DNA from: Phoronis australis
Taxonomy: Eukaryota; Animalia; Phoronida
DNA length: 64,000 bases
NCBI GenBank assembly: GCA_002633005.1
Contig: NMRA01000399.1
Coordinates: forward strand, 326,089 to 390,088
Direction of reading: 5' to 3'
In this document: positions 147-42,229 of the stretch, in pieces
How positions within the stretch are numbered: position 1 is the first letter of the stretch
Layout of the letters: each line of letters begins with the position of its first letter
Notes under the pieces: generated by a model
Seen by the model: the letters and a program-made list of their open reading frames with translations, nothing else
What the model was told of the DNA's origin: nothing
The model's database searches: none
Translations under genes and position numbers: made by a program

Positions 147-656
147 TGGTGATAATAGCTACAACGAACAGCTCACAATTTAATGTTGTATTCTCGCTTC
201 AGAAGGAATAATTGTGTGAACTACATTCATAAATTGGAAAATTGATATACGTTTTCATTTGATTAGGAATAGATTTGTCTAATTGTGAACGAAGTGTTAA
301 GTTGGCTGGGTTTCATAACGTTAACGTAGGCCTGTTGTAGTAAAAAGTTGAATCAAGAGGAAGATTTTATTTGAGACAGCATCCACGAGACAGATTGCTG
401 GGATCTAGTTAAAGATAATACTCTATTTTAATTCAATGTATTTAGTATAAATGCTGACTTAGAAGATCAGTCTCACTACACTGTTTTGGTTTTAGTTGTA
501 CTCCCCGGATCCGTAGTGCATACACGTGCCTCGGCGGGGTTCATTCGTACTGCATACATGTACCTAGGATCATTGCACTGCCAACCTCTGATAAACTTTC
601 ATTCCTTCAGATTTGTGTATGCTTTTACAAGCACTTCGCTTGCCTTTGTATTTCAG

Positions 657-3600
657 AATTCTCCTGGTCCCCCGGGAAGGCCTGGACCTCCCGGGCCACA
701 GGGGCCCCCTGGAGACCAAGGTGAAAACGGTAGGGACGGCATTCCCGGATCAAACGGTATACCGGGACCCCCAGGACACGTGTTCATCATGCCGGTAAAT
801 GAAGATGCATGATCACTAAATCTCTAGCACTTGCATAGTAAACTGTTCGTTTTACTTGTTAACGTCTTTGATGTAAGTCACGGTTTTCCTTCCGGCTCAC
901 TAACCGGAAAGTGGCTCCTCTTCTGGGAATTCCATGAGAAAATAGTAAAGTTGCGAATCTGATGTCTACGATCTATGTTGAGAAGGAAGAAATGCCCCAG
1001 TTTTGGATCACGAATGGATTACTTTTCTGTCCTCACAGCCTGGAATGCGTGCAACAATCCATTTGTTAACCCAACCCTGGATTCTCCACCTTACGAGGAC
1101 TTTCACTTGATTTTTTGTCATGAGACTGCTACGTGGAAATCCCTTACTCCAGAAGTCAAGCAATCAAATTAGTATTAATACATTTTAAATCTATTATTAA
1201 AAGATTGCTGTGGTTTTACTCATTCTAACGAGACTATGGTCTATTATCGTAATCTGTTAAGTTAATTGTTTAATTTTTTAAATTTTATTGCATTGTACTG
1301 GTTTGTATTGTATTCTCTTTTGTACTGGTATTGGCTCTCTTGAAAAGTAGTGTTATTACTGCAGACGTCAGCCTCATTTTCAGTATCGCAATAAATGAAT
1401 AAATTTCAATCTAAAGTCATTTCATCCAATGGCCTTATGGAGCAACAGCCATTGTGAGCCGCATGTCATTCTCCCGCCATTGTGGGCCGCATGTCATTCT
1501 CCCGCCATTGTGGGCCACACGTTACACCTCGAGTTATTGTTATAGATTGTCCGTGGCGATAAGAACGATCAACAGCAGACGGCGGCTGTGCGACAGATGT
1601 TGACGCAACACATGGTAAGCCTACTCTATGCCCAACTTACGTGGGTAAACTATTCCTAAATGCAGGAATGCATACTTTGTGTGCTGTGATGGAAACAAAA
1701 CACTGCTTATGTTTTTTCTATCGCTTATTGAAAATTCAACTCTTCAGTATACAAAATGTCATGATTGAAGAGATGAAACAGGACTTGAATCACAGTATTC
1801 CACTCATCAATTCATCAATAAATTCCCTTTTTATTTTAGGTTCGATTCCTATTCTGTGATGTCTATAAGCACAAGCTGATGTACGATTTTGTAACCAACA
1901 TTCTCTTTCACAACCTGGTTCTGTGACCTCCATTACACGTTCCACTATTCGTTTCTCAAACCTGGATTCTATGAAATCCACGATAAACATTTTTCTCATA
2001 TGTTTCCCATCTCTTATTTCCGCGACCATTCGCTTCTCAACAGATGTCGATGAGAGGGGTGCCAGGCCCTCAAGGTATGACTGGCTTACCAGGACCTGTC
2101 GGTCTTCAAGGCGAGGAAGGTCCGAAAGGCGAATCCGGTGAGCCAGGTGAACAAGGTGTGCCAGGACTCAGGGGTGGACAGGGTCTGTCTGGCCGTAAAG
2201 GACGACGGGTATGAAATGCAGAGGCGTCTGAATTAATGAAGTTTGTTGAGGTTAATTCACATGTACTTTCTGGTAGTTACTAGTAGGCATGGCACGTGAC
2301 TACTTGACGCTCTTCTAAACTCGCTTTCCATCAAAGAAACTAAACTTGTCCTTTACTCAGATAAGAATTGGCCGATGGCCTGTCATGACAAGCTTGTTGA
2401 GCCATTACGAGTTGTGAGTTCTCTCTTAGTCCAGTCTATTCTTCTTACTTGAAATCGAAGTCGAAAATATTTTTCAAACTCATGACAATTGTCTGTCATT
2501 CCGTGTTCGATTTTTATTGATTACATGGAGGAGTGTCTAGTTCAGGTTTGCACTTGATGACCCCTATATAGGTGCTGCAAAGTCAGTAGAAATTCGAGAT
2601 TTGGTGTAAAACGTCGAGATTTCGAGTTAGGCTCGAACTTGAATATTGGGTGTCACAAAGTGCAAAGTATGATTACACAATCATCCGTGTAAACCTTAAT
2701 ATACTTGAACACAGTACACATTCATCCGTGTAAACCTTAATATACTTGAGCACAGAATTGTAAACAGTTATCTTGAGTTCGCATTACAGTAGAACGGGAA
2801 GTGTCAAGCATGTTCGAGTTGGGTTTCTAGTTGTTAAAAGAGTAGACGTCGGGCCCTGAAATTATCTGTGAATGGTCTAAATAAAGGGTGAGCGGTATTT
2901 TGACGGTAGGCGGCTCACTTAATTATAGACATCAAGATGTGCACGGGCCAATCGAAACATTTTCTCTTAAATGACGCTTATTTTTCGCTTTCATTTAGGG
3001 TGTTCCAGGAGAAAATGGAGCCCGTGGTTTGTCTGGGCTTCCAGGTGCCAAGGGTTTGCCCGGCTACCCAGGTCTGACTGGATTGCCCGGTGACAAGGGC
3101 CCCGCTGGAATACCGGGGTCACCTGGTCCCATCGGTGCCCCTGGTCGCGAAGGTGCAGCTGGCGATCAGGGTCCTCCGGGACCAAGTGGTGTGCCGGGAG
3201 AAATGGTAGGTGTCAGAAACTCTAAGAGAAAATATATGTTTCACATTTCGCAATTTGCAGCAAATGCCCCTGAGAAACACAGCTTCAATAGAGAATTATT
3301 CATTTTTATGCGCCCACAGTTATATGTGGTCGCATATTGCCGTCATATCTGTCCTGGTGTCCGGCGTCTGCGGCTGTATCTCCTAAGCCCCTTGCAGGAT
3401 GTTACTGAAATTTGGCAAGTGTGTTCCTATGGGGTTGACGACAGAGGGCGACGAGTTTTGGACCGACCCGAATACCGCTGTGCCCCCTAGAGGCAATTTT
3501 AGTTTTTTACGTTCGCCTCTGTTTCTTCAAAGGTCCTCAACCGATTTTCATGAAACTTGGCAGATAGTCATCTATTAATGAGTTGATGCTATCCTCTCGT

Positions 3601-6600
3601 TTTCGGATGGATTCGAGGCATTTTGCGCCATCTAGTGACCATTTTTACTATTCTCAAGTCGTTTTTTGGCGTTCGCCCATCTTCCAACCAAACCACTCTA
3701 AGGATGATTGTGAAAGTTGGCATGTATGTTCTTACTATGTAGAAGACAACTGACGATTTTTCGACGACTTCGACTACTGTGTCGCCTCCTAGTGGCAGTT
3801 TTGTTTGTTTTGTCGCCCATGACTGTATCTCCTAAACGCTCTACATGATCTTTATTACATTTAGCAATTGTATCAATATGAAGTTGACAACGGACGAGGA
3901 CGACTTTCGGACAGTGTGCCCCCTAGTGACAATTTTATTTTTTTACGTTCACATCTGTATTTTCAAAGGTCCTCAACGGATTTCCATAAACTGGCACAAG
4001 CATATTTATTAGTGAGGTGACGCTAGCCATTCATCTTCGGATTAATTCAAGGTATTTTGCGCCACCTAGGGGCCATTTTTTGTTGCTTTGGAGTCTGTTT
4101 TTTAGCGTCCGTCCCTCTGTCAACCAAACCACTCTAAGGATGATTGTGAAAGTTGGCATGTAAGTTTTTTCTATGAAGAGGGCAACTGACAATGATTTTC
4201 CGACGACTTTGACTATTGTGGCGCCTCCTAGTGGCGGTTTTGTTTTTTTTACCCATACCTGTATCTCCTAAGTCCTCTGCAGGATCTTTATCAAATTTAG
4301 CAGGTGTATCTATTTAAAGTTAACAAGAGAAGACGATTACTTTTAGACGGATCCGACGAACACTGTGCCCCTTAGTGACAATTTCTTTTTTTTTTCGTTT
4401 TCCTCTGTTTCTCTGAAGTTCCTCAACGAATTTTAATGAGATTTGGTAAATTGCTTGCTTTTAAAGAAACTATGACATTTTCTGGTTTTCAGACGGATTC
4501 GACGTATTTTGCGCCTACTAGTGGACATTTCAATGATACAAATAAGCAACCCTAAAAGCACACCATTTGAGATGCATTCATGTGTATTTCAACGCGCCGC
4601 GTTGCTCTTGTTAAGGTCATACGATTCATCTTGTGACTTAACGAAAAGAAACAAGATCTCTGTTATAAATCAAGAGGAGACAGTGATTCCTAATGGGTAC
4701 AGGACCCTGTCCCGTAGGAGCAGGGGTGTCACCAATTACAACAATTCCACAAGTGAATTATTTAATGTAAGCTGTATGGTGAATACTGAAAGAAAACAAT
4801 GAATAGTGTCAGTATGCTGTACCATTTACAAGGCATAAAAGCGCGCGAATGAGGAAGATAAAACAAACCCCACACAAGACAATAAGTCCAATGAAATACA
4901 GGGGAGATAATTTCTAAAGAGACCGAGCTACACCAAAGGGATATCTAGAAATATCTGGAATCTAAATAAACAACAATGAAAGTTAAATACTCTGAAACTA
5001 ATAGTGAAATGCACCACAACGACGCGTCTCGCAAAATCGGTAACAAACAATGGCAGATCGAAAGGACTGCAAATAAACCTACAGTACGGAAAATACGAGA
5101 ACACTAAGACAAATACCTACAAGAACGGAAGGGAATGTGACTAAATAACGAACTACTTACAACTATCCACTGTAACAAGGCCAAATTCTGGGAATAACTA
5201 CGTAAAATAACTCCAATAAAAACTGTGCCGAGCATGCGGCGTCCAAAATGGCAATCTAAAGGCGACATCTAACGAGATACTTAAAAAACTAGTCCAGGAA
5301 GGGAGAGTGAGGCAGAATGAGCATACGTGACACGACATTGAGTATCCACCTCCTGTTCAATACTACTGGACCCCATTGTTAGACCCGTCAGGCCTCTACC
5401 TCCTCAGCTCCGTGTAATTTGTGTGTAAATGTGTATCTGTGTTATATATGTATATTCACAAACGAAGGTTTCTGGTGTTTGGTACAATGGGCACGGCTGA
5501 GCGGAACTATGTGTAATGGACCACCTGCTCCATTTTTGTCACAAAATAGTGTTTCGAAATTTATCCGTCGCACCTGTGTGATTACGCGTGCATTTGATGA
5601 TACAGTATTTGTTATTGGAAGGCCTCGTTTGCGTTTAACATTTATTTGCATTTCAGGGCGTACGTGGATTTCTCGGACCTCGAGGAAGACCCGGGCCGCC
5701 GGGACATCCGGGTTTCCCTGGAGAACAAGGCGCTGGCGGGCCTACTGGCGAAATTGTAAGAAACTACTACTGACCGCATATTTGCTCACGTCGAGAGTGT
5801 TGCTGATAATATTCAACTGGCAGTAATACAATATGACGTGCAACGGTTCATATTTAACATATTGTGTTCAAGTCGTCACCTGGTGATATTTCCATTTGTT
5901 CTTTAGATTTGTTAAAAACAAATGTTGTCGAATTATTCAATTCAAGGAGCCATTTCCCTGAATATCAGTTTTACTTTTTCTGAAAAAATATTTAGAGGAG
6001 GCAGTGTGGCCTGGTTGATAAGTGCCCGCTTTCTTTACTCGAGGTCGTGGGTTCAAGTCCCACCAGGTCACACTGCTAAACCCTTGAGCCAGGTTTCTAG
6101 CTCCTCAGCTCGGTTTTAACCATATATCAGAAAAGCATAAAAATATTTCCAGGTGATCAGTGCAATGGGCCCACATGCGAGGCCTGCGCACGTCTGATAC
6201 AACGTGTATCAGACCGCCTGCAATTATTTTTTATATATTATATTCTGAAAAAATATCTTCCAGTTGATGCTTTCAAAAATAAACGCGGTTGTTTGATCTC
6301 TCGCGGTTGCAAGTTTTAACGTAAAAGCTCTTGACTACAGTTATACAGAGCTCTTGATTTGCGCAGTAATATACGCAACTACTTAACGAACCCATGTTGG
6401 ACCGTTTCATCATCCGCTAGTTTGTTAATCGGCATCAACTTAACTGCGATGTAATAATTCATGTACCTCCTCCCAGATGTTTTGTGGCATTTCATATTTT
6501 AAATTTCCATGTTACAGGGCGCAATGGGACCGCCCGGCCAGCCAGGCACGTCTGGTCAGACGGGTCAGCAGGGACCCCCTGGTCCTATTGGTTTCCTTGG

Positions 6601-9600
6601 TCCGCCTGGTGTCCCTGGTCCTATAGGGAAGCCTGGAATTCCGGGCCATCCAGGTGTGGATGGCAACCCGGTAAGTTGAGATGGACACGTTGGTGTTTGA
6701 ACGCTTACCGCCCGTCGTTGTGATTATTTGGTCACAAAAAGTTTCGTCGACGATCCGATGAATTTGCGATAAAAATATGGCATGTCTGGACCACCCGACC
6801 GGGCATCGGCATAAAAATCATCAAGCGTCACTACTGATCCAATGAAAAATCGCCCGATCATGCTGGGCATCGCTGCATCCCGAAATCCTCGTGCATTTCC
6901 GTACCCTCAAATTTCCCCTTGGAGGTGAACGCTGTATGCGTATATGTGGACTTCACTCATATGGCAGGTCATGTGACTTTCAAACTGGAGAATAATTGGC
7001 CACATGTCTGAAGTTCTCACATGCGCACATAAATTTCAGCGCCATGCAGAAATATGAGGCTACAAAAATACCTGAGATGTTCCAGATGTACACTGGTACA
7101 GAATACTTTCCGCGGGATCGGCCTAGCAACTTGTTGAGACTAAAAGGAATGGAGTGTGGCGTGTAAATTGCTAATTTACTTTAAGAACGAATTTTGTGCC
7201 AAGCAAGATCTGACGTAAATGATCAATCTTTATCCCATACGCTTTGAATCAGTCGCGTGCAATACGGCCATGCAATATATATAGTTTTCCGCACTACTTC
7301 AACAGTGACCTCTGACATGGAAAGTTCAAAAGGTATGTCAATGTTGACTAGACGTCGTTTGCCGGTTCGATCACCAAACTTTCCGAAATAGTTTAAAGTA
7401 ATTCAATTGCAGCAGTGTAAATAACACTCAAAATGCAATCAGGTCCCAAATGTAACATCTGGTACAAAACTGTTAATTATATGACACTTCTGTCTAAGAT
7501 TTCAATAGCTAAATATTATACCGTCTGCAACTCAGGCGCCGATTCCTCTGTAACAGTATCAAATATTGTTGTTATTTAACTATTCAATGCACGCACAATT
7601 GCCGTTGTTTTCATCTTTGTTATCTCTTTTCAAGTAAGAAATCGTTACATTTTAAACTTACTACAGAAAACTTGTAACCTAACGCGCAAGTATATACATA
7701 TAGAATGCGATCCGCCACGTGAACAGTCTGGGTGAAGTATTTAAAAAATCAGCCGAAAAGGTGAAAGAAACTTAAGAATTCGAAGCTTATGGTATAAATA
7801 CAAAATCCGTTCTCGGTCGATACGCGGAATAATGTCTCGTGGGATATTACTTCATCTACGCCATTCTCGGTACGTTTTGTGTATTTATTTAGTTTATACC
7901 GTGACTTAGTACTAGGCACCGTACTGTTTCACCCTTGTTATGATTTAAATCTACATTGCGTATTTTGACCAACAATTGTGTCTTGGCGTTGCAGGTTTTT
8001 CACGTTCTAATTTTCGTCTGTAGGGTATGCCAGGACCTCGTGGTCTATCGGGAGAAAAAGGCGAAAAAGGACCGGAAGGACAGCCAGGCCCGATGGGATA
8101 CCCAGGGCAACGTGGGTTGAAGGTAAACACGAAAACCTTAACTTAACGGTCATTACACTTTTTGTGACCTTGGGCATCTCGCGTAGTACATTGCAGTATT
8201 GGAATCGTTTACATTATAGCTCTCCTACTAAAAGAATTCGAAAGCTCTGATATAAAAACTCGTTCTGGTAAGGAACGCTCGCCACATCCTTGCTATGGAA
8301 ATTAACAATAGTTAAGGGATGTCGATACTGAGTACGAAACACGTTGTTTTGTGCTAATTTAATTTGATGTTTGGAAAATGTTAATTCTGCCTACACGTAC
8401 GTTTGTTTTAAGAGTTTATCCGATTTACCTTACTCAAACCTGCGCAGTCATTTTCCTTATTGTCGTCTTTCTCTACCTTCACGTTAGGGTGATTCGGGAA
8501 AACGGGGAGCTCGAGGCTTTAAAGGTGAGATAGGGCAGATGGGGACAGACGGACCAAAGGGAGCTATGGGCCAGAGAGGCGAAGTTGGATTGAAAGGAGA
8601 TAGGGGCGTAAGGGGCGACGATGGACCACAGGGACCAAAGGTATGGATTTGTGGTTTTAAAAGAAACCTCGGAAACGTGACATGCAGTAAATTTTCATTG
8701 TATTATACGGCGCTGTCGTGTATTTTGACAAGATGGGGTTTATTATTTCGTTAGTGTACAAGTTAATCTTTTTCTAAAATGTAGAATCACATGATCAAAT
8801 TCCGCTACTTGAGCTGGTATCTAGATGGCAATCCTTTGCAAACATTTTACATTGCAATCGCACCTGAAGCGTAATTATGGAGAACTCTGTCAGAGACGAA
8901 TCGCCCAATGAGTGCAAATTTGATTACAGGGTGCTGTTGGACCGGTCGGCGAGACTGGGCCTTCGGGACCACTTGGAGAGAAGGTAAAGTGCAATCCTTC
9001 TATACTTGAGCCATTCATTTTATCTGTTTTTTTTTTAAAGTTATGACCTCTGATCTCTTTCCTTGGAACATTGATCTCACTATCTTCTTCATCAAGACTA
9101 GAATGGATCTTTGAGTTGTTGAAGATTAGGAGTCCGTTTCTGCCTAACTCAGATCAAAGTCAAGCTAACTTAAGACCAAAGTCAAGCTAACTTAAGACCA
9201 AAGTCAAGCTAACTTAAGACCAAAGTCAAGCTAACTTAAGACCAAAGTCAAGCTAACTTCAGGCCAAAGTCAAGCTAACTTAAGACCAAAATGTCTTTGT
9301 CCCGTTTCATGAAATTTGTTAAGACCAAAATCAGTCTAAGCTAAGACTTGCTACGGAGTAGGTTTAAGATTGCACTATTATCACTGTAAACTGATGAGAA
9401 ACGAATTACGTTGACATTTTTCTCAAACTTATGTCCCTACCTAAGCAATGTCAAATTGAAGATAGTCTGTAATCGGCCATGTAAGACAATGCGGCGCGAC
9501 TTACCGGCATATGTGAAGTGATATTTTTCGGCTAGCTACACTGGGGTCTTCTCAGGCAAACAGGATCCAATTGTGTTCAAAATATACATAGATCTTTCTG

Positions 9601-12600
9601 ACCATCCGTCTTAACTTAGCCTGAATGTCGGTCTTATCTTATAAGTCACATTTACATCACAAAAGTTGACACGGATCAGTTGACACGGAACGTGATGATC
9701 GGGCGCAAGTATGTGTGTAAACAGGACTGACAAGGAGCAAACTGACACCACGGTGACAACTTTTGTCACCCGTTTGTGAGGCAGAGCAAGTTATGGCCGA
9801 TCATCTTACTCGCGTCGACAATATGTCTAAACACGAAACTGGGGCAAGACGGAAGGGATTATCTCTATTGCGCTTGTCAGTTGCGCCGTGTCAAAACTAA
9901 AACTTAATTTCTAATTAAAACCAGTTTCATATTGGAACCTTTTGTATTGTTTGCGCTTTAATAATTCGAATTAGCGTTCCTAACTACACGTGATGAAACA
10001 TGGACCAAAGTAAGTTCACTGAACGCGTCAAGGAGAAAATTCGCCATTTCTATATTTATTCCAGTTTGAAGTTCGCGTTCAGTTTGACCTTGTGAGCGAG
10101 GCGTCCCGAGACATGCAGAACAAGCACTATAAATCGATCCATAATTTCTAATGTTGCCAGAATTTGGGGTGTGGGATACGACTACCATTAAATGATGCCA
10201 TTCATTATTTAATTTTCACCTTAGTTATCAACGTATGATAGTTGACAAGAACTTACACCAGTTGAAGGCGAATTTTATTCCTTACGTGAACACTAACTTT
10301 TGAAATGAGTTAATATCTGAAAGTTCCTATAACTGAGTGAATTTTGGGACCTACAAGGGTTTCCTTGATAATTACTTTGAGCCTTGAGTTGTTCTATTCA
10401 AATTTATGCTAGACCTCAGAAATTATCAATTTTCTTTCTGTAGTTCATTTCTACTACGTTCTGAAACCAAGTTGAGAACACGAATGTGCCGTTCTGATTC
10501 CAGGGACAAATGGGTATTCCCGGATTTCCGGGCTATCCGGGTCCTCCAGGCGAGAAAGGTGGTACCGGAGCTACAGGTCGACGCGGACGAGATGGGCAGA
10601 AAGGTTCCACTGTATGTATATCTCAATGATAATAATAGCTTCACATTGACATTTCAGGGACAAATGGGAGTTCCCGGATTCCCGGGTTACCCCGGACCTC
10701 CGGGAATGAAAGGTCACCACGGCGCCACAGGCCGAAGAGGCCGAGATGGTGAAAAGGGATCACCCGTATGTTATAACTGTCTGCCACCGGTGTTTCACGC
10801 TTGTCGCCGAAAAAAAATTAAGCTGACGTGTGCTTTTGTCTTATTGTGTAACCGAAATGCTTGCTTCTTCTCGTTCTGTATGTTGTGTTGAAAGTACTAA
10901 GCATTTAGTATCTAAAGCTTCAGTGTTTTGAGCAGTGCTCTTCGAATAGCCATGGATTATGACAACTAGTTAGATGCTTTAGATTACGCTGTACATTTTA
11001 TAACAAAATTGCTTTTTAGTTTATAATTAATGAAAATAATTTGAGCAAATATCTGGAAAACCCGGAAATTGAAGCTTGTGATTGTGCTGTTACGTTGCGT
11101 GTGTTAACACAGTTACGTGCATTGTAGGCTTGAGGAAACAAGTGGCCTTTTATACTGAGACCAGGCTTCCTCCTTGAACTTCTTGATTAATTGCGGCCTA
11201 AGACAAGAGCTGATTTCCCATTGAAGTTTCACCGTGTTTTATGGAGGAATTTTGTGTCGTACAAGGAAGCGATTGAGCTCATATAATGACCACGCGTGAA
11301 TGTTTACTTTAGCTATCTATATTGTGATATGCTTTGTATTGTAGTTTGATTTTCCGAGATGAAAATGCTGTCGATGAAAACGTGTTTACAATATGCAGTA
11401 ATCAAAGAGAGTCAGGTCTGTCAACAGTTTTATAATACTGTGGTCAAATGATTAAGGAGTCTGGTAACCATATATTACATCTCCTCATTATGCTGTTAAT
11501 TTGCTGCAGGGAGACCCCGGTCCTATTGGAGAAAGGGGGTCACGAGGCCCACGGGGTCAGCGAGGCGAGCGCGGAGGCCCAGGTCCTGAAGGTGAGCTTG
11601 GATTGTAGCCGCGCAACACACGCCACAAAAGCAGAAAAATATCATTTTATAGTATCACTTTAATGGGAAAGGTTATGTTAGAACATTAGATAAAAACCAT
11701 GTACCAAAATTTGACTGTAGCCTCTTACATAGGTTCCGTATTTTGAGAACCAGTCCGATGTTCGATGGAGAAAACTAAATAAATTCTCAAAATGCGATAC
11801 CCTGTATAGCCATTACCCTAAAGCTGTTTGAAGGCAAAATTGGATGCAGCCACAAGAAATGTTTCATCCTGTGCATGTTTTGTGGAAATCTCACGCCATG
11901 AATGTTCTCAAACGCTGATACATTTTGCAGGACCCATTGGTGCAAAGGGGGAATCAGGTCCCGCCGGACCACCTGGAGCAACAGGAGTGCAAGGTCCCAT
12001 GGGACCACAAGGCCCACCAGGCTTTCTTGGACCACCAGGAGGTGCAGGGTTCCCCGGAAAGGACGGTCTTCCCGGACACCCTGGAGACAGAGGCGAAGCG
12101 GTAGGCACCTTGGCCTTTGTCTTACTTCTGCGACATAGTCTACTACATATTTACTGAACAGTTACAAGTTCTACTAGTCAGTGTTCTTGGGAGCTTACCA
12201 ATATGTACTATCTGCCACAGGTCTTCCTCTGAAGGAGAGTGGAAGGTAGAAGAACGATAGGCACAAATCCGTAGACATGTGAAATACGTCAATTTACTTT
12301 TATCTTGTTCCTGATGCATCAGCTGCAAGCCACAAAAGAATTTCTCAATAGATGGAGCTGCATACACTCATCCCCGTAGTGAGGAGTAGCCCTTTGAAAG
12401 AACCATGTAACGGCTTCTCATGAATTAACTGAACAAAGCCACATTCTGACGTTCCGATTGGTAGGAAAATAATACAAAGACGTTCCACTTAGATTTTGGT
12501 TAATACATACAAATACTGCGGCGTTGACCGATGAAAAAACTCTTGGCGAAGAGTGTGGCATGCTGGTAAAAATTCAAAGTTGTGTTTTACACGTGCTATT

Positions 12601-15600
12601 GTCTGTGTTGTTCATTTCTGTGTTTTACACGTGCCATTGTCCGTGTTGTTCATTTCTGTGTTTTACACGTGACATTGTCCGTATTGTTCGTTTCTGCTTG
12701 ACCATTTACATTCCTGACTTCTTGAGTATTTCTGTCACAAATGGACAATGTTTAATTTGTGGGAGGAGTTTATTGCATGCTCCACCTCTTATTGCGTAAC
12801 ATCTTTCTCGATTTCTATAGGGTATTCCAGGCGAGGCTGGCCAACCAGGACCTGTAGGCGTCCCAGGTTTGATGGTAAGGACAGTAGCGCTGTCTGTTGT
12901 TTAGTTTCTGCAATAAAATGTTCAAAACAAAAGTAAATGTACATCTCTAGTACAAACCTTTTCGATTCGAGTGTGTTTTACACCGTAAATAACTTCTACA
13001 TTCTTCCATTGTGACCCAAGTTTGTCAGCTTCATCTCTATTTTTTGGTTCAACGCTCGATTTTGCCGAATCATAGTAGTCGACAAATGAATTAGGGGATA
13101 TTGGTTTCATTGTGATAAAGATGAATGTCTATTCCGTTGAGATTCATATCTCTCGGCGTTTTAATCGTACGTAGCCTACAGAATTTAATCCACTGGAATA
13201 CGTGTACTGTACAATGTGTGACTAATTGTTTTACAAATGACTGTATATGAACTGTACAATGTGTGACTAATTGTTTTACAAATGACTGTATATGAACTGC
13301 AGGGTGCCCCGGGAGCTGTGGGTCAACCGGGAGAATCGGGCCCACCCGGTATTCCAGTAAGTGACAGCACTCCCTCCGAGCACCATTATGTTGATCCCGC
13401 TCATCCATCAATTAAACTCGACTTCACTTTAGTCTCAATACCCGTCTAGCGTCTCAAAGTGGTAACTGCTAATCCCAACCTGCTTCCTTCACACTACCTT
13501 ATGTCTTTTCCACCCACTTCCGTTTCCTCCATTTATCAACCTCTGCTTCACGCCTCAGTTTGGTTATGTATTATCAGGGTCCTATCGGTCTTCCGGGATT
13601 TCCTGGAGAGCAAGGTCAACGTGGAATTCCGGTAAGTATGATGTAACCGGAAGTAAATCGTGTTTCCATGTCACATTTGGCACAGGAATATTTCAGGTGT
13701 GAAAAATGTAATGAATTTTTTTCTTCAATTTAAAGTGTCGTCATTCGATTCTATTTTTGCGACTTTCTATTCAAACCAATACAATACAAGTCAGGTTTTT
13801 AATGAAAAGGCTTGAAATATTACTTTTCACAATCATCTGGAGATGCATCGCGTTACGCATCAAGACTGTCGTGACGACGCATTTAGCTCGTGCGCAAACA
13901 GCCACGTCCAGTCACACGGTAATCCGTTTTATAGGTCAAAAATGGGTAAGCTTATCATTGGTTGGAAACCTTATTTGGCAAGAGCATTACTCGCGCGTCA
14001 CCACTGAAGTCCCCAAGTCCTTAAAGTGGCCAGAGATGGGCACTTGAAGAGTTTTAGAAAAACAGGCTGCTGCTCTTTTGTTTTGTTTTGTTTTGTTTTG
14101 TTTTGTTGCGTTCCACTGCACGCTATATAAAAACCTGTGTATCATTTGATTTTAGCTTTTCGTCTTTTCCCACACCACTTACTGTGACAGTTCCGTTCAA
14201 AGGAACAGCGTTCTCCCATTTAGCCCGTGCATGTAACTGTTCCATTTCCTACGCCCATTCCGTGGCTCATGGCAAAGTCGATAGATGTTTTGGTGCATAT
14301 TTAATACTCGTATGGAAAGAACCGAGAATCAGTAGTTTGATTGATAATGACTACACTTGAATATTTTCGCCTGTTTCACAGAGTCGACTGGCTAAGGCAT
14401 CTGACTGGTACGTAAACCGGAAGTTGTCATCAATTTCACCGTGAACTTTCGTTATTTAGATGAGCTCGTTGTGTCAATTTGATCAGAGCTTCTGCTTGTA
14501 CTGGCTTAATCAAATTCTTCGTGAAGAAAACGTAACGGCTTCACTTCAATGACGTCATTCCTTCGTATAACATTTGCTTCATACATTGTATGTTGACTAC
14601 TAAACGATTACGAATCGTCACCTATGTTTTGATGGATAGTGTAATTACCACGATTTGTTTATAAGTTGTTTTGTGACTTACGAGCCTTATACAATGCGGC
14701 GTCATAACGCTTTTCTCCTTAGTTTGCGATTTCTGAACTGATTACAATCATTTTAAGGCGTTCTGCCGCAGACATGGCTTCGAGTAATAGACGAATCGTA
14801 TGGTGCTACGTTTTGAGAACGACAGTACTATGTTTTAATTAAGATTGTAAATGACCGAATTGTTTCTTGTTTCATGGCGTCGTCTTTAAAAACACGTGTG
14901 CGGTATTAGACGCCATTATAAGCAGCAGAATATCACAGTATAATGTTTTCTCTCCAGGGACCGCCAGGAACACCAGGACTGCCGGGTGAGACAGGTCGAC
15001 CAGGCCCTCCTGTAAGTATTCTTGACCTCTGTCCTTCAGCTGCAAAGGATGTTTTTACAGCCATTCGATCGTACACGTGGCAAATTAACGGATTATATGA
15101 AACGTATACACAGCGTGAATTATTTGTAAGTCGATGTAATTTCCAAAATTCGTCATGTAAAGAGTACTGTAAAAGACGACTGTAGTTACATTATTTGGGC
15201 CACAAATTACTTTAAACAGGTTTTTCAAAATAGAAGTTAAAAGGTACTAGACATAATGCTTCGCTTGCAGTGTGGTTACAGAGTATGAGTGATGAAAAAT
15301 TAACAAGCAGTGGTGTTGACTTTTAGCTCCATAAAAGTTCAACGAATTTTTAACTTCAGTACTTTCGTTCAAGAATGATTGTGATTTCATTTTTCCAAAT
15401 GTTATGTTATATCAGTCTGCCTTGTTTCAAATGACCCCATTTTACCAGCACACCACACTTCAAGATACTGGCGAGTAAAAGTTAGTTTGATCACGTGCTT
15501 CGCTTGTAATGCGTGGCGATATCTCACGAAGTCTTGCTTGGCCTAAGTTTTCTCGCTAGAAATTTGTTCCAAATAACGCAGCCCATACGTTGTTTTATCA

Positions 15601-18600
15601 TACAAACCATGCTAACAGTGAAATAAAAATGTTCATTTATGTTGAGAATTCTCCCAAAATAAAATCTCATTTCCAACAATACTATATGTTACACAGCTGA
15701 AGAAGTATGTTTAACCATTCCATCTACACATTGTAGGGTAACCCAGGTCCACAGGGAATGCCTAGCACGGAAATTGGTCCACCTGGCCCACCCGGTCATC
15801 CAGGCGATAGAGGTCTGCCAGGACCTGTGGTAAGTACGTCACGTGTTTTTGTTGGTAAGCTGCAAATATTAGATCACCTTATTCGTATTCAATTGAGAAT
15901 TATGGTGTTCGTCACGAAATTATCCCGTCCAGATTTGAACACTCTACTTTCGCGGAGATATTAGCGAATTGCTTTAGTAGATTAGTTTTTGAAATGTCGG
16001 GAAATTTTTAGTCTTGTGTGTTACTAGATGCTGGCGTCACCATTCAAACTGTCTGCGATAATAAAACATTGTTGTCTTGAGAAAGATATGCAACGGATTT
16101 ACAATATTGTGTGTAAATGACGCCGTTGTATTTCGGACTAATGGACATCATTAAACTACGTCAGGGATATTCATGGTGAAACTAATGTAATGCGCCTCCT
16201 CCAGAGGGCGCCTCGCTCTAAAAGAAATGAAAACGCTTTGTAGTAAACATGCCGCGCAGAATCATAGTTATTTGCTCTCTGATGATTCGAAGGTTATTGT
16301 TTCAAACGTAGTGTATACATGTTGACTTCTATTTAACAGGGTAAGGATGGTGGAAGAGGTGATTCTGGCACCCAGGGTCAACCAGGACCTCCAGGGCTGA
16401 AGGGAGAGATGGGTCCGGTCGGTGGCAGTGGAGACAAAGGTCCGCGGGGACGACCAGGCAGCATGGGACGATCTGGAGCATCCGGTCCGAAAGGAGAGCC
16501 TGTAAGAAGCTGGGCTATTGAGAATTTTTGAAATGTCGAAGAGTTAGGAACATAATGCTTAGAAAACTGAAGAATAAATGTATGTATATTGGAGATAAAG
16601 GTTGACACAAAAAAATGAGAAAAAAGCGATTATTTATTTGCGCTGATGTATTAGGTAAACGTCATTTTGTCTCGCTGTAATGTGTGCCATAATTTCTGAA
16701 GAACAACCTATGGTAACATTATTTTCATGTAAGTAAGTGAAGTTTTAATGGCTAAATCTGTTCCGAGAGCTTTCTGTTTTATACACGATGTTTTTTGAAA
16801 TGCAGATGTTTTTTGTTCAACTGCTCGTGGCTTGCCAAATAGACATTAGCACTAATGTTTTGTCACAGGAGATCTCTATGGTTATTACAGTATATCAATG
16901 TTTGTTGTGATTAACTTCCGTTGTCAAAAAGAATGCAAAAAGCGGCAAAGTCATCGTTAAACGGGCACTGGTCTAGACATCTTGAGAAGGTCTACTCATT
17001 TAAATGTTTGGTTAAGATTTTACGTCTATATTATTTTTTAGGGTTTATTGAAAATGTCAAAGAAACAACTTTGAACCAAGTGTTTTATTTCCAATATGAT
17101 TTCTTTCTAGGGCTTAGACGGCATGCCGGGACCAGGCGGGTCACCAGGCATACAAGGACCCACCGTAAGTAATTTGGGCGGGTCACCAGGTATACAAAGA
17201 CCCACTGTAAGTAATTTGGGCGGGTCACCAGGTATACAAGGACACACTATTAGTAATTTGGGCGGGTCACCAGGCATAGGAGGATCCACTGTAAGTAATT
17301 TGGGGCCAGAAATTCAGAATTAATTTAAAGCTGCATTTCGCGCTGTTCAGCTGGCTAAAAAGGAAATTCGAATTGAACCCTTTTATTCTCCCAGATTCCG
17401 TCTCGTAATAGTCCATGATTTAATCCTATTTCCATTACCAACCTTTGAGTATCAGCATAGTTATCAATCTTCCGTGATCACTTTTCGCCTGGGTATTTGT
17501 AACTTCAATTGCTCATTTGAAAATTGACGTGTTGACCTTGACTTTGTAGGGTCTTCCCGGCGAACCAGGACCAGTTGGGCCACCTGGTGAGCCAGGCGAT
17601 AGGGTAAGTCTTACCACCAGCAGAGGCATACTCCTGTAAATAGAATTAAGTTCGGAAGGAAGGAACTGTGATCACGTGCTTCGCTTGTAATAAATGGCGA
17701 TGTATCGCGAAGGGTTACGCGATCTTGTGTTTTCGTAAGGTTCTCGGGTATATGAAATGCACTCTAGATCCGTGACTAAGAAATTTTCAAATTGTGACCG
17801 TGACTAGTATGTGATTTACACGATGGTTTCTTGAATTACAGTTGATGGTTGCAGAAGTTGATGATTCATTTAATTTCGTTTTTGTTAAAGCGTAAATGAA
17901 GAGTAAAGAACAGAATTAATTCACGTATCCACGAACTCATTGGTACCATATAGTCTGGCAAAATCTTTATTACCACGTGATCTTATGTACTATGTTAACC
18001 ATTTTGTCGTTTGAAAACCACTCCATACTCTCATCAAAAGAGCCGCATCAAATATAGCTAGCGTGCGTTCACTCTTTCAAAATCTTAAATTTATCAGATT
18101 TACAAACAATTCTCAAGCAAATATACTAGATCCTAATTTAGATACATAGTTCACAGTAATGATAGCAACTGTCAGTTTTAGGTGACTATTGTGAGGTAGA
18201 GACGTGTAGTCACCTTAAAAATCATACTTACAGTAGAAGTTCCCTCCAATATGGCACCAAATCATTTAATTTTGAGGTCGGGATCATGGACTAAATAATT
18301 AAGCCTCGTTTTCATCATAGGGTGAATCGGGGACAGTTGGAAGTAAAGGTTCCAAGGGTGAGAGCGGCAGTGTTGGCAAGGCAGGACCTCAGGGTCCGAG
18401 AGGATCACAGGGACCGCCAGGCATTCCGGTAGGAAATTAACAAGTCCAGTGATTACATGATCGTATTTGTAGCATCGTATCTCTAATGTGCAACAGAAGT
18501 CCAGGTGCACGCGATGTGCACGCGCAGCCTTAGATTACTCTCGTCATCTATGCAGCGTTGTCTCATCGTCTTCTTGGAATTTGTCAGAGCCAAATAATTA

Positions 18601-21600
18601 CAGTATAAAGGTGAATCGACGAAAATGCTGAAAAGTGATCATTTCGCTATTTAGAAAATGTTTGATGAAATAGTATTCGCTAGAAGAGCCACATTTTTTG
18701 TAGTTGCTTTTATTCCAAATTTTATGTCGCATAATCTACTTCTATTGATCTCTGGAGATTGCTGTAACCTTAATGTATTTCACCATTTTCAATCGCAGGG
18801 TCCTAGCGGTGAAATGGGCTCCCCAGGCGCACAGGGACCCATCGGTCAGAAGGTAAGAATTTCGTGACGTGCTTACGGTCACACGTTTTCTCTCTTTTTA
18901 TGTTTTCCGAAAATTATCAATATCAGAGGACTCTCGAATATTTAAAATATTTTGGGCTCTCCAATTATTCACCAACTCTCCTGCAATCCTTTACCGTTTT
19001 ATAAAGAACTCTGAACTGTCTATTGTTGACACATAAAAATATAGGTTTTCTCAATCCCAGTACATATCAAATCATTTAGGTAAATTTTGATCAAAAGTTT
19101 CTTGTGTGAAGAACATTATTGCACGACCATGTTTTCATAGGGTGCGGACGGACCACGCGGCGGCCCAGGCCCAGCGGGTGTGCCTGGACGGCAGGGTATG
19201 CCAGGACCTGTTGGAGATAAGGGGCCTCAAGGTGACGATGGCAAGATTGGCCCGCCCGGTCCTCCGGGACCGATCGGTGCCACGGGTACTCCAGGAGCAG
19301 TGGTAAGTCGTTTTGCAAAGAATGAAATTTAGCGCATGTCGGAATCATCACAAAAGACGTTGCGTCTAAGAACTGTTCCTAACTAATTGCCACACAAAAA
19401 GTGGTAGGCTTACTTTATGTCCGTATGCTACTGATAGGCAAACCCGTTTGCCTGCCACACCCAAGTGCTAATTGAATCGATACAGGACTGTTCTGACGAA
19501 AAAAGAAAATCACGAATGATCCTGCAATATCACGGAGTGAGTGGTGAGTCTTTCGGAGTTACCACTGGAGTTTTACTTACGTACACGAACAAAATGGTTA
19601 CAACTGAAATGATTTGTCGGCTGGAATGTTGAATTATGTTAATATAATTGGCGTTTCCGTTCCTTAAGTGAAGATTTCTCACCTCAAGGTGTCTAGCAAA
19701 TGCTCAGCGTTTACGGAAGGTGCACCAGTTATACATGTACGTTGTGACCACTGTTGAAACTACTATATTTTCATGCAGAAAGCATTTAGTCTCGGAAAGC
19801 ACTTGCCCATTTATTTCCGTAGCTAAAACACACTGCTCTCGTCATTTGTTGCTGTTATGTGACCTTCGCTTGAAGTTTCCAATCTATCCATAAAAATGAT
19901 AATTCAAATCAGTTGGCAACACTTTAATCAATGAAAACGCTAAGATAAAATATAAATGAAGTGAAAACAGCTTACGTAAGCAAGTCACGCAAGCATAAAT
20001 CTCTTCGATTAATTTTTAGGGTAAACCCGGAGATCCTGGTTACCCTGGCAACGAAGGACCTCAAGGACAGAAGGGTGACCCCGGCGTAGCCGGCTCAGCT
20101 GGTGTAGACGGCAGAGACGGAGAAACGGTAAGCATTCTCAGTACAGGAGTTGGTCGCTGTTCATCTTAAAGGGATATGATAGGTTTTACGCCTTTTGGGA
20201 ATTATTGGTGGATAGGGTGAACTTGTTGCACTAATTAAATTCTTGCATTAATTAGCTTTGACCAAAGTTATAAAACAAGAAAATCCGTTGCGTTTTCATG
20301 ATTGCAAATCTCCAATTCTCGCAATGGTCGAAAATCTTGCAATTCTCGCCAGTTAAATACCCTTCAAGACTCTGTCGTTCATCTAGTGAGGTTAAGCTCA
20401 CCCAGTAAAGATTTGCACTGCGGCAGCGCGGTGGCTTGAGTTCAACTGCACGTTGGGGCTAATCTCGGAAAACCACTTTTCTCTTCGATAATGTTGCTTT
20501 AACCCAGATGTATTGACTGTGGTAGTTGAATTGACGTCAGTTTCCGGTTCCGAGATTGGCTGTAAATAAAGGAATTTACAATTTCTATTTTCATGAATAA
20601 CACCAGAAATTTTTATTGACGTAGGAGCGCTTCCTGCAACTTACGTAATTTTATGAAATAGTTGTTATACAGCAATGACCACGCCTGCATCCTTCTTGAC
20701 TGTATTAAAATAAAGCCTCACAGTCATCCCGTGACCTAATCGCTCTGAAACCGATGTCCTGGGTTTAACCAAACAACTCACATTGAACGATTCCACTTAA
20801 AACCAAGCGAAAGTGGCGACGCAGTGGTTAACTGAACAAAACCAGTTTATGTTTGGCATATGTCCCGAATTGTTAACTATTATTCTAGTACATAATATGG
20901 AGTGATAAATAGGTATATATACATCGTGTGGAAGATGATTTATCTCTGGAAACATGAACATGAAAATGAAAGTATTTTGCAGGTATATCACTGTCGCTTT
21001 TGCATTTGTTTTAGGGTGTACGCGGTCCACCGGGACCCAAAGGTGATTCGGGTTCTCAAGGTCTGCAGGGCCCTGCAGGAGAGCGCGGTGTAAGGGGTGA
21101 GGACGGACAGAAAGGAGAGGACGTAAGTTCAAAGAGGCTTTTGTGGGCACATTATTAAAGGCTTGGAAGTACTGGCCTATCTACATTGCTAGAGGCTTTC
21201 TCGCAAAATGTTCTCGAAGTTTGGCGATATTTTTTAATTATTTATCAAAAATTCAGCAAACATTTTTCTTATGAAGTCCTAGGTAAATCATTGCACACAG
21301 CTTGTTAATGCGGATAACAAATCGGATTGTGTTTTGATGTTATAGTTGCTGCCAGAAATTTAATTATTCTGTATCTGTATTCTTTCTTTGTCCCAAATCG
21401 CCATTGTTCGAACTAACACTTCTCCTCTTTGAGGTGTGTGTCGTATTTTGTTTTTCGTTCAGTTACTTTTTTCAGAAATTCATTTTATTGATATTTCTGC
21501 AAGCAAAAATAGCTCAAATCTTTATATCATCACTATCTGCTTAGAATGAAATCGACATATTCTATTGCTTACTGCAGTATTCATTTTCCTCTACGTTTAC

Positions 21601-24600
21601 TCTCGAATTTTGTCCCTGGGTCTTTTGTAAAACCTTGATTAATCATTTCAGGGTCCTATTGGTTACCCTGGTCCACCGGGCCCGGCCGGATACGTCGGAC
21701 CCAAGGGTGACAGAGGAAAACCAGGTAGCGATGGAAAGAACGGGAAAAGAGGACACGTGGTAAGATTTTAAGTCGTTGCAAAGCATTTTTTGAGGTATAA
21801 GACGTCAGCTTTTTTCATAGGCATATTTGCTCCTCCAAAGTATCGTTATCGCGTTTATTTCCTGTGTTTGAATTGTTATCGGTTACGATAAATTACCCAG
21901 AATCCTCCGACAGCCACACTGCCTTGATGACTGACACTAAACTGCCGTGACAAACAACTTCATCAATGCTGTGCGAAGCAGTAACCATTTGTGAGTTCTT
22001 CTCAAGCTTAAAACTAATTCTAGTCTGAATAAGAAACAGGGTGAGACCCTCTATGACATAAATCAAAAGTTTATTTTGACAGAAGGGACCCCTAAGGGAT
22101 TGCTTGATGACAGGATATCATTTATGTACTTATGTGTAAACATCGAATACTGAAACTTTTCATCAAAGAAATTTGCGCTGCAGGTTTTACTTCAATTTGT
22201 TGAAGACACTAAATGAAATCGTATCAAAGTTCTCCTTCACACTCGAAGCTATTACATCATAAGTACAGTCCAGATAAAAGCTTTATTTCTTCTCGTAGGG
22301 ACCGGCGGGACCTCAAGGCGAGCAAGGTTTGCCCGGACCCCCGGGCAAGTCAGGTCAACCTGGCGTCCCGGGCTTACAAGGTAACGACGGGGAACCGGGC
22401 GATAAGGGCGACACGGGAACGCGCGGTATACAAGGCGATATCGGAGTACCAGGACCCCCTGTAAGTATAGCGGAGCATGTTTTTGTTGAGAGACGTAAAG
22501 GAGGACGGCTATGTGGCAAACAGGGCGACATGCGAATACCACGTTGCCTGTGAGTATTGGGGAATATGTGATCATTTAGAGATGCAAAGTAAAACAGTTA
22601 TGTGCTAAACAGGGCGACGTGTGACTACAACATGGTTCTTACTTCACGATAACGTTCATTACACCATTAATTAACAAATGTCGTGTCCGTTTTCACAAGA
22701 ATCTGTGATCATGTGACCGACAGTTTCAGAGTATTTGCAGTAAATCGTGTGTTTCTACTGAAACTTCATGAAATGAAAACCACTTCGCGACTGAGAAACA
22801 AATTTAAGCGACTGCGAGGCAGATCTAAGATGGTGCAGAGACGTGACCCAATCACAAATTTGAAAGGAAAACTCTTTCGGCTCCCCCATAACGACGTGGC
22901 GGCTGCCTTTCTTGTTATTTTTGGTCGTGGGTCAGAGGGTAGGCACCCTTCCCCTTTCAAAGTCTGCCTATGCCTTGTACTTGGCAGGTGTTCCGCAGTT
23001 TTGGATGGTGCCTCACACGTGCACGACTTTGTTACGTATTGCAGTCTCCAAACACTACGTTATTTATAAGTGACAAAACAAAACTACCTCAACAAAATAC
23101 AAAAAATACAAGTGCCGCTATGTTACGTCATACCATGTTACATGTGAAAAACAATGAACGCTTATTATTCTAGGGAGCAACTGGACCACCAGGACCTACA
23201 GGGTTACCAGGACAACCAGGGCCTAATGTAAGTATCCAAGGGAACACTTTTTGTTCATAAATAAACGAAGAGCGCTTTTTGCGTTTTGAAACATAGTGCC
23301 ATATAAGCGACCTAAAATGGCGATTTTCTCAAGGTATGTAAAGATAACACAAAAAGGCAGGAAATGACGTCATAAGCCGAAGAGAGACTTGTGGACTACT
23401 ACAACATATAAACATTGATAACTCTAACGAATGGGATTGTTACACCTGACTAAATAACAAGCGACAGTTTGACAGATAGCGAGGCTACTAGCAAACTAAA
23501 TAACATGTCATAGTTTGTTTGACTGATATCGAGGCTAGTAGCAAACTAAATAACAGGTGACAGTTTGACTGATAGCGAGGCTACTAGCAAACTAAATAAC
23601 ATGCGACAGTTTGTTTGGCTGATAGCAAGGCCACTAGCAAACTAAATAGTATGCAAAAGTTTGTTTGGCTGACAGCGAGGGAACTAGCAAACTAAATAAC
23701 ATGCTACAGTTTTTTTACCAATAAGGATGCTACTATCAAACTAAATAACATGCGACAGTTTGTTTGACTGATCAGCGAGGCTACTAGCAAACCCGTATCA
23801 TTTTGACATTTCTATTTTTGCCAACATAATTGATGTATCAATATCGTCACGTAGGGAGACGCGGGCAGTACTGGTCCACCTGGTCCGTCAGGTGACGCCG
23901 GCATTCCGGGGGCGCAAGGACCACCGGGCGTTCAGGGTGACGTCGGTCAAAAGGGAACCAAGGTAACAGACAACTACTGTTGGCGTGTTGTTACAGCACG
24001 CGCTGGAGGTGCAGGTGGTCGCGTCATTTCTCTTCAAGTTCAGGGAGTGTTCAGAGACTAATAATTCGTTGTTTGAAATCTCTGGGGATAGCATTTCGTG
24101 TTAGTATTAAGTGATTTGGAGTGTACATATTTGATTCATGGTCGATTGTTTGCGATTTGTAAACATTATGTAATTAATGTTACTCACAATTAGAACTGTT
24201 GAAGTGCGAACTTGGATTGTTTCTCAGGCACAAAATCATAGTCGCATGTTCACCTGTGGTTCAAGTTTTCGTGTATACGTTTGAAAGCCGGGCTCATTTC
24301 TTTCTTAGGGTCATAGAGGAAATATCGGTGCCGGTGGCACTGCTGGAGAACAGGGTTCTAAGGGAGAGACAGGCCCACCCGGCCGAGATGGGCCTCCAGG
24401 TGGGAAGGGGGACCAGGTGAGTATTAGTTCCTGTTCCGCCGAATACTTTGCAAGTGATCTTGTTCATCTCAATATTGTGTTTGGGTATTAAAGTGACAAG
24501 ACAAACTTCAAGGAACTACCGTACATTTTTGAATTTGGTTTTCAAATCAAAATAACATTTTTGAAAGTGTGCACTTAATCACCCGTCATACTTCCGTTGC

Positions 24601-27600
24601 ATGGCCTTTTTATGCTCTTTTCTGCGCATCGTCCGTAGTGATGAGCGGAATCTGCAATTTTCTGACCACGCTTGGTCTCTGTTTGGTCAATGCACTGTTA
24701 GTTCCAACAAAGTTGGAGATTATCAAAACATACGTGTCACAGCGATCAGCTCATTTCAAGTGATCATCGTTATTTATATCCCTTTCGCTCTTTATCTAAC
24801 AGTAAACACTTTCAGGTAACTCGATGTCACGATTCCTAGTTCAGCCTGAACAATCACTGAAGATATTTAGAAAGTGAAATTGGGTAATCAAATCGTGCGC
24901 CGCCCCTAAAGTTGTAAGCGCCACTTCAAAATTAGTTTCTCATTACGTTTATTTTCACACACGCAGTGGAACAACGAGACTTTTTACAAAGCATGGAATC
25001 GTCTGTGCTATGAGTTATTACCAAATCATAACGGTAGGTGGCAGACGACGGCAATGGAAGCTCGTGTCTCTCGCTTGCTTTAATCGTAAGGCCATTCGGC
25101 CTCCCGTTCAGTAACGCTAGGTCCTCGCTAAAAAGCAAGACTTCGCGAGATTACATGAGATATTGCTGTGAATTTTAAATAAGAGCACGTGACTTTGACT
25201 AGGTTTTAGCTAGGTCCTAGCGTAGATCCTAGCGTCTACTGAACGCAAGCCAGGTATGGTATGTAACTCTATTTAATATGATAGATAAGGCCAAACCAAG
25301 CTAGTGTGAAACAGACCAAGAGCTGCGTGCTACTTGAGAGATCGTTGAAAGGCGTACACGTAGACTTACCTACTCGGCGACACACACGTAAACTTTTCAG
25401 TGAAGTATAGACCGGGAGAGTAGACCAAAATACCAGGTTTGTCGACATTTCAAAGTGTTGTAAGTCAATGTGGCAACTTTCGTTATTGAACTTGTGAACT
25501 ATTTGTCCAAGCTGTAAACCTGTCCACGTTTGCATTTCAGGGCCCAGTTGGCTCTCCAGGAGCGGTTGGTTCACAGGGCCCTATTGGCGACCCGGTATGT
25601 ACGCACACATTCGGTCCTCCTTACTGCTCTGTCTCATTATAAATAATCTCCTATGCATGCCTTGCGAATTGTATACAGTATTCCGTGAAACGAACAGAGC
25701 TGCACAGAACTATAAATTTAGTCAGAATACACCTGACACCGTCTGTTGGCACACAGTAGACTTACTCTCCTGTCTGCCACCTTTTTACACAGAACATGTA
25801 CAGAAAACACATTGTGATGTTTTAGTATCACGTGAGATAATTTACTGTTTTCGTGGGACAGACTGACTCAGTAGAGATCTGGTGGACCTTATTTAATGCT
25901 TCAAAATGGCTTGTCTCATTATCACGTAAGGGGAACACACCAACGCTTGTCAAATATATATTTTTACGTCTGTCTAACATTATATTTTTCACGCGTATGG
26001 AGAGCGTCTTTAGGATTACTCAAATGGGCTAAAACAACATTGGAAAATTTTAGTCAGTGAGCGTTACCCACTCAAAGTCAATATTCTTTAATCAGCCCCC
26101 TGTTTCATTGCATAATCTCATAGATAATAGCCTTTTGTACTTTATGCGCAGCAAATACCAACGAAAACATAAGCTAACCAGTCCCAAAATCGTTCATGTT
26201 TTGCATTAAAGTGCTTATGTCAATGGTAATGCTTACACACCTCTAACCAATGTTTATAACTCAGTATGTCCCGTGACGTCATATGGTGTGGTAGAAAATA
26301 CGAAGTAGGAAGACGATACATTGTATATAATGCAACCCATAGATGCCGTCTTTAGGGAGAAAAGAGAGAAAACGCCACACAAAATCAGGCGTATTGAAGG
26401 CGAGTTTTATTGGAGTACACCCCCTCGAGCGACTGGAAATAAAAAGCATTTCAAATGTATTCTCTGTACAGGGTGCACCTGGGAAAGTCGGCTCGAAAGG
26501 AGAACGTGGTAATACCGGACAGAAGGGTGAACCGGGTCTCGCGGTAAGTTTTCTTTTTGAGTGTACGTTTAGTAGAGTTCGTTAGATATATGCTCGTGAG
26601 ATTGCAACGACCTCTGCAGTACCAGTGCAGAACTTATAAAGCTGCTACCTAACCACCTGGGATCAACAAGTAACTTTTGAGTTTGACCATTTATATTGAT
26701 TTTAAGCTTATCTTATTGATTTCTGGACTCGTTATTGTTCGAGACCATGCCTTATATGTCGCCACCGTCAACCAGCCACACGTTAATGAATTCAATCTTT
26801 GTGTGCCTCCAGGGTCCACCTGGCCCACCAGGACCTCCCGGAGACGCCCAGCCGTTCCCCCTGCACATGTTGGGCGATGCCACTTCTGGTAAGAACAGGC
26901 GTCGCCGTCGCGCCGTGAGCGATGACAACAAAGGCGAAGAAGATGAGCTGCCCGACCTCAATGAAATCCCCATTACACCAACGATCGGACGTGTCGTCGA
27001 AACGTTGTTCGGTCAACTTGATGATATGCGGGAGGACATCGATTCCATGAGATTCCCCAATGGTTCCCGAGAAGCCCCAGCAAGAAGTTGCAAAGATATC
27101 TACTTGGGTCATCCCGACTCCAAGGATGGTTCGTAACTCATTTGAATTATCGAGTCAAAGCACACTATGTGGAAGAACAGAACTCACCGACATGATGTCT
27201 AAACCGTGCTGCGCCTTTGTCAAGTCTTGCGATGCCTTTTTTCGCTGAAATCAATTTACATGAGCACAATAACATTGTTAACAAATTGAATTTTTCTGAA
27301 CATTTCTCCAGGGACGTTTTTTGGTGTTTCTGATAAGGACGCGAGACACAAGAAAGCTCGTTGGCAAGTAACCATTAATGTCTGAAAACTCAGTTAAGAG
27401 GGTGAAAATTTGTTCTTTTCGCTTTTCATAGTCGAACTATATCAGGAGACTATGGTTAACATAACCTTTACGGAGACAGGAGTCTTCCATTAACATTCCT
27501 GTGTGTAACTACTCTAAGCATAAAGTTGTTTCTAGACTCTTCCATTTGAGCACGATGTTTTGCAGGCTGGTATTGGATAGATCCCAATCTGGGGGTCATC

Positions 27601-37495: not shown

Positions 37496-37548
37496 TGTAA
37501 TACATCCCAAGGGAGAGCCAGATGCGAAGTTTCTCGAAAATCCAAACC

Positions 37549-42229
<4,681 letters not shown>

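Follow-up and report, generated by a model that had tools for sequence, protein, structure and literature searches.

Either/or exons, and likely a second such pair, in the major helix of a fibrillar collagen gene of Phoronis australis

How does a fibrillar collagen gene hold its chains to one length when its helix exons, taken together, encode a longer one? The question is raised by a gene of the phoronid Phoronis australis, the 3′ part of which lies at 657–29316 on the plus strand of the window analyzed here, the 64,000 nucleotides (nt) at positions 326,089 to 390,088 of contig NMRA01000399.1 (GenBank assembly GCA_002633005.1). This part of the gene comprises the end of the minor triple helix, the major helix, the C-telopeptide and the COLFI C-propeptide. 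The available text of PMC2852846 gives about 338 Gly-X-Y triplets as the prototype fibrillar helix. In the window, every Gly-X-Y exon between 2056 and 26848 is bordered by AG and GT. Joined, these exons keep a single frame without a stop and add up to 356 triplets if the STEI break counts as one triplet, and our recount agrees with the number given in the original prediction, which was made from the DNA letters of the window. Two pairs of exons are at issue, 10a and 10b with 12 triplets each (pair 1) and A and B with 6 each (pair 2). We put a probability of roughly three in four on the reading that the gene splices in 10a or 10b, and likely A or B, holding its chains at 338 triplets, and on the resulting isoforms differing at helix residues 307–342 and likely 445–462. 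Up to four equally long chains are likely to be made from the one gene.

Helix length, register and chain type

Omitting one member of each pair gives 356 − 12 − 6 = 338 triplets, and a chain of this length is in register with type V/XI chains of fish and with L008, an intron-free invertebrate contig that encodes a full clade B-like collagen (517–3557 plus the C-propeptide). The helix of L008 has 338 triplets, with one frame break filled with X, and was aligned without gaps; gapped alignments were discarded as too noisy. The four one-of-each chains scored 878–888 against L008, compared with best scores of 414, 539 and 451 for chains of 344, 350 and 356 triplets, respectively. Shifted registers gave a mean of −94 (standard deviation 68, maximum 80) against 878 in register, 218/674 X/Y residues are the same as in L008, and an offset of 0 was best in 11 of the 13 blocks. 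With the fish V/XI chains, these scores bear out the predicted register of a chain carrying one exon of each pair. We also scored 203 ways of reaching 338 triplets by dropping whole exons, and the top 6 all omit 10a or 10b together with one of 12821 (the exon at 12821–12874), A or B. The slot at triplets 143–148 is filled by exon 12821 in 5/5 fish chains, the RNA places the choice after 12874, and in the slot at triplets 149–154 the score of exon A equals that of B.

The vertebrate references contain no unbroken run longer than 196 triplets, hence partial runs were scored, 20 of them from fish, frog and mouse. Four (P0072, P0109, P0117 and P0176) register with no isoform of the window chain, and two (P0046 and P0075) score highest with A and B both dropped. 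We read these six deviating runs as candidates for clade C chains or erroneous gene models.

Judged by its sequence, the gene is a clade B-like (type V/XI-like) fibrillar collagen. Almost all named protein matches are type V/XI chains, and the Pfam family PF01410 (COLFI) is above its cutoff in all three C-propeptide exons scanned. The COLFI domain is closest to that of L008 (101/219 residues identical) and next to those of fish V/XI chains (88–93 of ~222), with XXIV/XXVII chains distant. Three fish V/XI chains scored 436–449 against the domain, as opposed to 213–224 for XXIV/XXVII chains, in a comparison that covered V/XI and XXIV/XXVII chains and from which reference P0072 was left out as having no usable COLFI end. 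The missing helix register with P0109 and P0117 likewise places the gene nearer to V/XI than to XXIV/XXVII. A homologue search with a single COLFI exon returned no match. Like vertebrate V/XI chains and L008, the gene encodes COLFI, a minor helix and a major helix of 338 triplets that is in register with theirs. Unlike vertebrate V/XI chains, it has duplicated helix exons, lacks Cys2 and Cys3 in the C-propeptide, as does L008, and has a break at triplet 164 in place of the uninterrupted major helix of the prototype vertebrate type V/XI chain.

Exons 10a and 10b are used either/or at constant length

Exon 10a (10504–10611, plus strand, as are all features of the gene) and exon 10b (10658–10765) are adjacent, homologous, both 108 nt long and of the same phase, and each encodes triplets 103–114. 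They are identical at 30/36 residues and share 18/24 X/Y residues; among the 28 pairs of 108-nt exons, the runner-up has 6 in common. The RNA data cover 8400–16600 and comprise a contig set (X1, from study P1) and three runs of raw reads (X2, X3 and X4, from study P2; ~18–19 in 100 of each), with junction joints of fewer than 3 reads per run unlisted. The joint from 8983 to 10a is present in 4, 2 and 1 reads of X2, X3 and X4 (sum 7) and that from 8983 to 10b in 5, 12 and 22 (sum 39) and in an X1 contig. On the other side, 10a is joined to 11510 in 1, 0 and 3 reads (sum 4) and in an X1 contig, and 10b to 11510 in 8, 16 and 49 (sum 73). The two exons are spliced to identical neighbors, and all four joints occur in RNA, from two studies. 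Neither a joint from 10a to 10b nor one that skips both is among the joints listed for the four RNA sets at the threshold of 3 reads per run. Pair 1 consists of either/or exons of constant length, with 10b the major and 10a the minor alternative. The share of 10a is uneven between runs, at 5/18 junction reads in X2 versus 6/105 in X3 and X4 together (Fisher p 0.01, tested post hoc and with mates possibly counted double), which hints at regulation.

Of the 36 codons in each exon, 23 differ between 10a and 10b, 17 of them silently and 6 by replacement, with divergence of ~1.8 at synonymous sites (dS) and ~0.14 at nonsynonymous sites (dN), or a dN/dS of ~0.08. The low dN relative to dS indicates that both copies have long been kept by protein-level selection. 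Tandem exon duplication is the probable origin of the pair. The intron between them (10612–10657) is 46 nt, whereas the other helix introns are all at least 221 nt, and it is likely too short to splice. We hypothesize that the spliceosome cannot act on an intron of this length and that joint inclusion of 10a and 10b is likely blocked, as has been proposed for the Caenorhabditis elegans gene let-2. In the text available from PMC4165533, introns of <40 nt between such exons in C. elegans, the 30-nt intron of let-2 among them, are considered not to be spliceable, and steric interference is proposed.

Exons A and B and the competing explanations

Exon A (13303–13356) and exon B (13578–13631) are separated by an intron of 221 nt (13357–13577). 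They have a common upstream partner, equal length (54 nt) and equal phase, and each fits the slot at triplets 149–154, with A the minor and B the major alternative. Entry into A from 12874 was seen in 0, 0 and 7 reads of X2, X3 and X4, and entry into B in 3, 21 and 48 (sum 72), such that A was bypassed in 72/79 entry reads; B is joined to 14958 in 7, 7 and 30 reads (sum 44). Junctions of 10b and B predominate, making 10b+B, with its 338 triplets, the main chain. This rules out transcripts that routinely include both members of each pair, the 356-triplet outcome against which the original prediction had been set. Exon A retains 6/6 glycines, its reading frame and its splice sites, and no further Gly-X-Y run of at least 4 triplets was found on either strand of the 21,586 intron bases scanned, which argues that A is not a chance run. 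With its frame and glycines kept and its slot score equal to that of B, A is likely a working exon, and we consider A/B a likely working either/or pair.

Splicing around pair 2 would probably involve regulated competition between A and B, as suggested by the pyrimidine-rich spacer between them and the slowly removed intron downstream. The A–B intron is the highest of 31 scored introns in pyrimidines (C+T 0.66 over its last 200 nt); in a scan for branch points, no clear distant one was seen for B. The intron after B (13632–14957) is covered by sense-strand RNA in X2, X3 and X4 alike, at a depth of ~3.2, 3.4 and 6.6, while most other introns are at ~0–1 apart from repeats, and we read this depth as an intron that is slowly removed or retained. 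A short tandem repeat lies at 13205–13302, immediately upstream of the A acceptor.

Several observations weigh against four equally long chains. Rare transcripts with both 10a and 10b could fall below the 3-read threshold, and no read spans both pairs. In other genomes, the 10a/10b duplication was found in 0/11 metagenome loci examined, none of which is from a close relative: seven are genomic loci that are nearly identical to one another and have a fused exon of 162 nt, one is another genomic locus, two are intron-free contigs and one is an unrelated collagen-like gene. For pair 2, L008 by itself cannot separate 12821 from A/B as the surplus exon, and the block containing the pair is one of the 2/13 in which offset 0 loses. 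A and B share 4/12 X/Y residues, where the best of 45 pairs of 54-nt exons shares 5/12, a background level at which similarity by itself does not mark them as a pair. A is entered in one of the three raw-read runs (X4), and joints from A to 14958 and from A to B are both missing among those listed; ~4.4 exit reads from A would be expected in X4 at the threshold of 3, with P ~0.19 of fewer, which is within chance. The use of A may also be tied to an allele. All five X4 reads over 13299 carry an 8-nt insertion at the A acceptor that is not in the window and improves the pyrimidine tract, and the acceptor in the window is weak, with 8 pyrimidines at −20 to −4 and a lower number in just 1/31. Either/or use, as originally predicted for both pairs, is established for 10a/10b by RNA from two studies and is likely for A/B, where the exit of A is unseen.

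The possibly allele-dependent entry into A leads to an explanation in which pair 1 is the sole either/or pair, giving two chains, and A is minor, allele-dependent or unproductive, with transcripts that retain the following intron and run into an early stop. The X4 reads that enter A carry the more pyrimidine-rich acceptor, while the acceptor in the window is among the weakest; the exit joint is unlisted, there is sense RNA in the introns after A and after B, and read-through from A would meet a stop at 13447. However, A has kept all its glycines, its exact 54 nt and a slot score equal to that of B although its DNA likeness to the neighboring exons is gone, which points to long protein-level selection, and chance suffices to account for the unlisted exit joint. 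We consider this explanation unlikely.

A might instead be an optional cassette ahead of B, yielding a minor chain of 344 triplets. The 221-nt intron is spliceable by length and its removal keeps the frame, a joint from A to B is compatible with the RNA junction list, and A is as similar to 12821 as it is to B (4/12 X/Y residues shared with each). A chain of 344 triplets, however, loses register with L008 (414 versus 878–888) and with the fish chains as well, and the joint from A to B is itself unlisted; the cassette is improbable. Less probable still is the view that the additional exons stem from an assembly artefact (tandem haplotypes) or are dead duplicates. This last view draws on the polymorphism of the animal, whose RNA departs from the window at several places, yet the 23 differing codons of 10a and 10b are far past the allelic range and both exons are spliced within the same runs. 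We regard it as very improbable overall, and for pair 1 it is ruled out by the RNA.

Possible consequences, related systems and other features

If the gene selects one exon of each pair as proposed, the constant length is likely under selection, since the chains have to be in register with one another, both in the trimer and in the D-staggered fibril. The likely effect of the choice would be a local shift of fibril surface chemistry. Exon 10b brings two histidines, GEKGGTG of 10a becoming GMKGHHG with Lys324 common to both, and B has an arginine where A has none. The motif KGHR is described in the available part of PMC4825002 as conserved at helix cross-link sites, with a D period of 234 residues. 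In the window chain, KGHR occurs at Lys925, KGHH of 10b at Lys324, and Lys84, the N-terminal helix lysine, is without a motif. The C-telopeptide lysine, 15 residues past the helix end, is residue 1030, and 1030 − 3 × 234 = 328, near Lys324. From these positions we speculate that 10b may supply an extra cross-link site. A broader scheme, in which splicing toggles the cross-linking and surface pattern at fixed length, with KGHH of 10b as a second KGH-type site at a distance of roughly three D-periods from the lysine of the C-telopeptide, independently regulated pairs, four chain types and tissue-tuned fibrils, is doubtful.

The original prediction also saw in the isoforms a way to build heterotrimers. 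Designed heterotrimers find no support here, as the same C-propeptide, without Cys2 and Cys3, is on all isoforms. Chain selection is the job of the C-propeptide in the available text of PMC2852846, which also has Cys2 and Cys3 both missing from some invertebrate chains; stable homotrimers of vertebrate chains require both cysteines, according to the text available from PMC6181919. With a C-propeptide common to all, isoforms within one cell would mix only at random.

Vertebrates obtain diversity of the fibrillar helix by gene duplication, and skipping of helix exons is harmful. Exon duplication with either/or splicing would be a second route to helix variation, one that keeps the 338-triplet length. 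Alternative splicing of vertebrate fibrillar collagens is known from the propeptides, as in the COL11A1 variable region and the COL5A1 C-propeptide exons, and a hydra collagen paper may describe alternatively spliced chains. For COL2A1, the IIA/IIB splicing is likewise in the propeptide (PMC2148200, in the part available). Searches of the literature on collagen splicing and evolution, in which most hits were judged by their listings and few subscription journals were covered, turned up no case of mutually exclusive exons within the major helix of a fibrillar collagen, although the supplementary tables of genome-wide studies could hold cases, and the available part of PMC9966395 does not mention splicing. 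The closest printed case we found is let-2 of C. elegans, encoding alpha2(IV), with exons 9 and 10 (available portions of PMC2119826 and PMC4165533), which are switched developmentally (PMC2119826). As in let-2, homologous mutually exclusive collagen exons of ~108 nt flank a very short intron (30 nt in let-2, 46 nt here). By contrast, let-2 encodes a network-forming chain and has one pair, of 108 and 111 nt, whose main difference is a Gly-X-Y interruption. The phoronid gene encodes a fibrillar chain and likely has two pairs, in which the exons are equal in length and made up wholly of Gly-X-Y triplets. The splicing mode is a known one, in a domain for which we found no printed case. With differences at 6/36 or 8/18 residues, the isoforms offer naturally matched pairs for asking which helix residues govern packing, cross-linking and ligand binding. 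For annotation, the locus is a warning that a gene model with every exon included yields a false chain of 356 triplets.

The rest of the gene frames the two pairs. The minor triple helix ends at 657–795 (13 triplets at 666–782), the gene start being upstream of the window. Seven major-helix exons at 2044–8983 encode triplets 1–102, as supported by splice sites, register with L008 and with P0137/P0077, and the joint from 8640 to 8930 in RNA. Between the pairs, exons 11510–11591, 11931–12100 and 12821–12874 (triplets 115–148) are in every isoform seen, with their joints in RNA; the intron at 11592–11930 is the single phase-1 case and is RNA-confirmed. The helix break at triplet 164, in a 93-nt exon (15737–15829) ten triplets past pair 2, is real in RNA, as an X1 contig matches the exon with neither a mismatch nor a gap. 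It loses a Gly and gains one residue, for a helix of 1015 residues, and is not in L008 or five fish chains. The remaining helix exons (16340–26848) encode triplets 171–338, the RNA junction data ending at 16502, and are followed at 26849–29316 by the C-telopeptide, an RRRRR cleavage-type site and the COLFI C-propeptide, which is in four exons and has 6 Cys.

By eye, the 3′ end of exon 17111–17164, together with its donor, recurs at 17165–17305 (plus strand) as three decayed tandem copies (~41 nt), a snapshot of exon-end duplication, and a tRNA-like sequence, possibly a tRNA-derived short interspersed element (SINE), lies within a collagen intron at ~5998–6075 (plus strand). Beyond the collagen gene, the window holds a four-exon gene of the papain family (cathepsin L-like) at 37522–42230 on the plus strand, with I29 and Peptidase_C1 domains. 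Two overlapping open reading frames (ORFs) at 34729–35398 on the minus strand, with a YADD motif, are presumably fragments of a reverse transcriptase of a long interspersed element (LINE). An intron-free ORF of 633 amino acids at 51923–53824 (plus strand) has an Ion_trans domain, and we take it to resemble a TRP channel.

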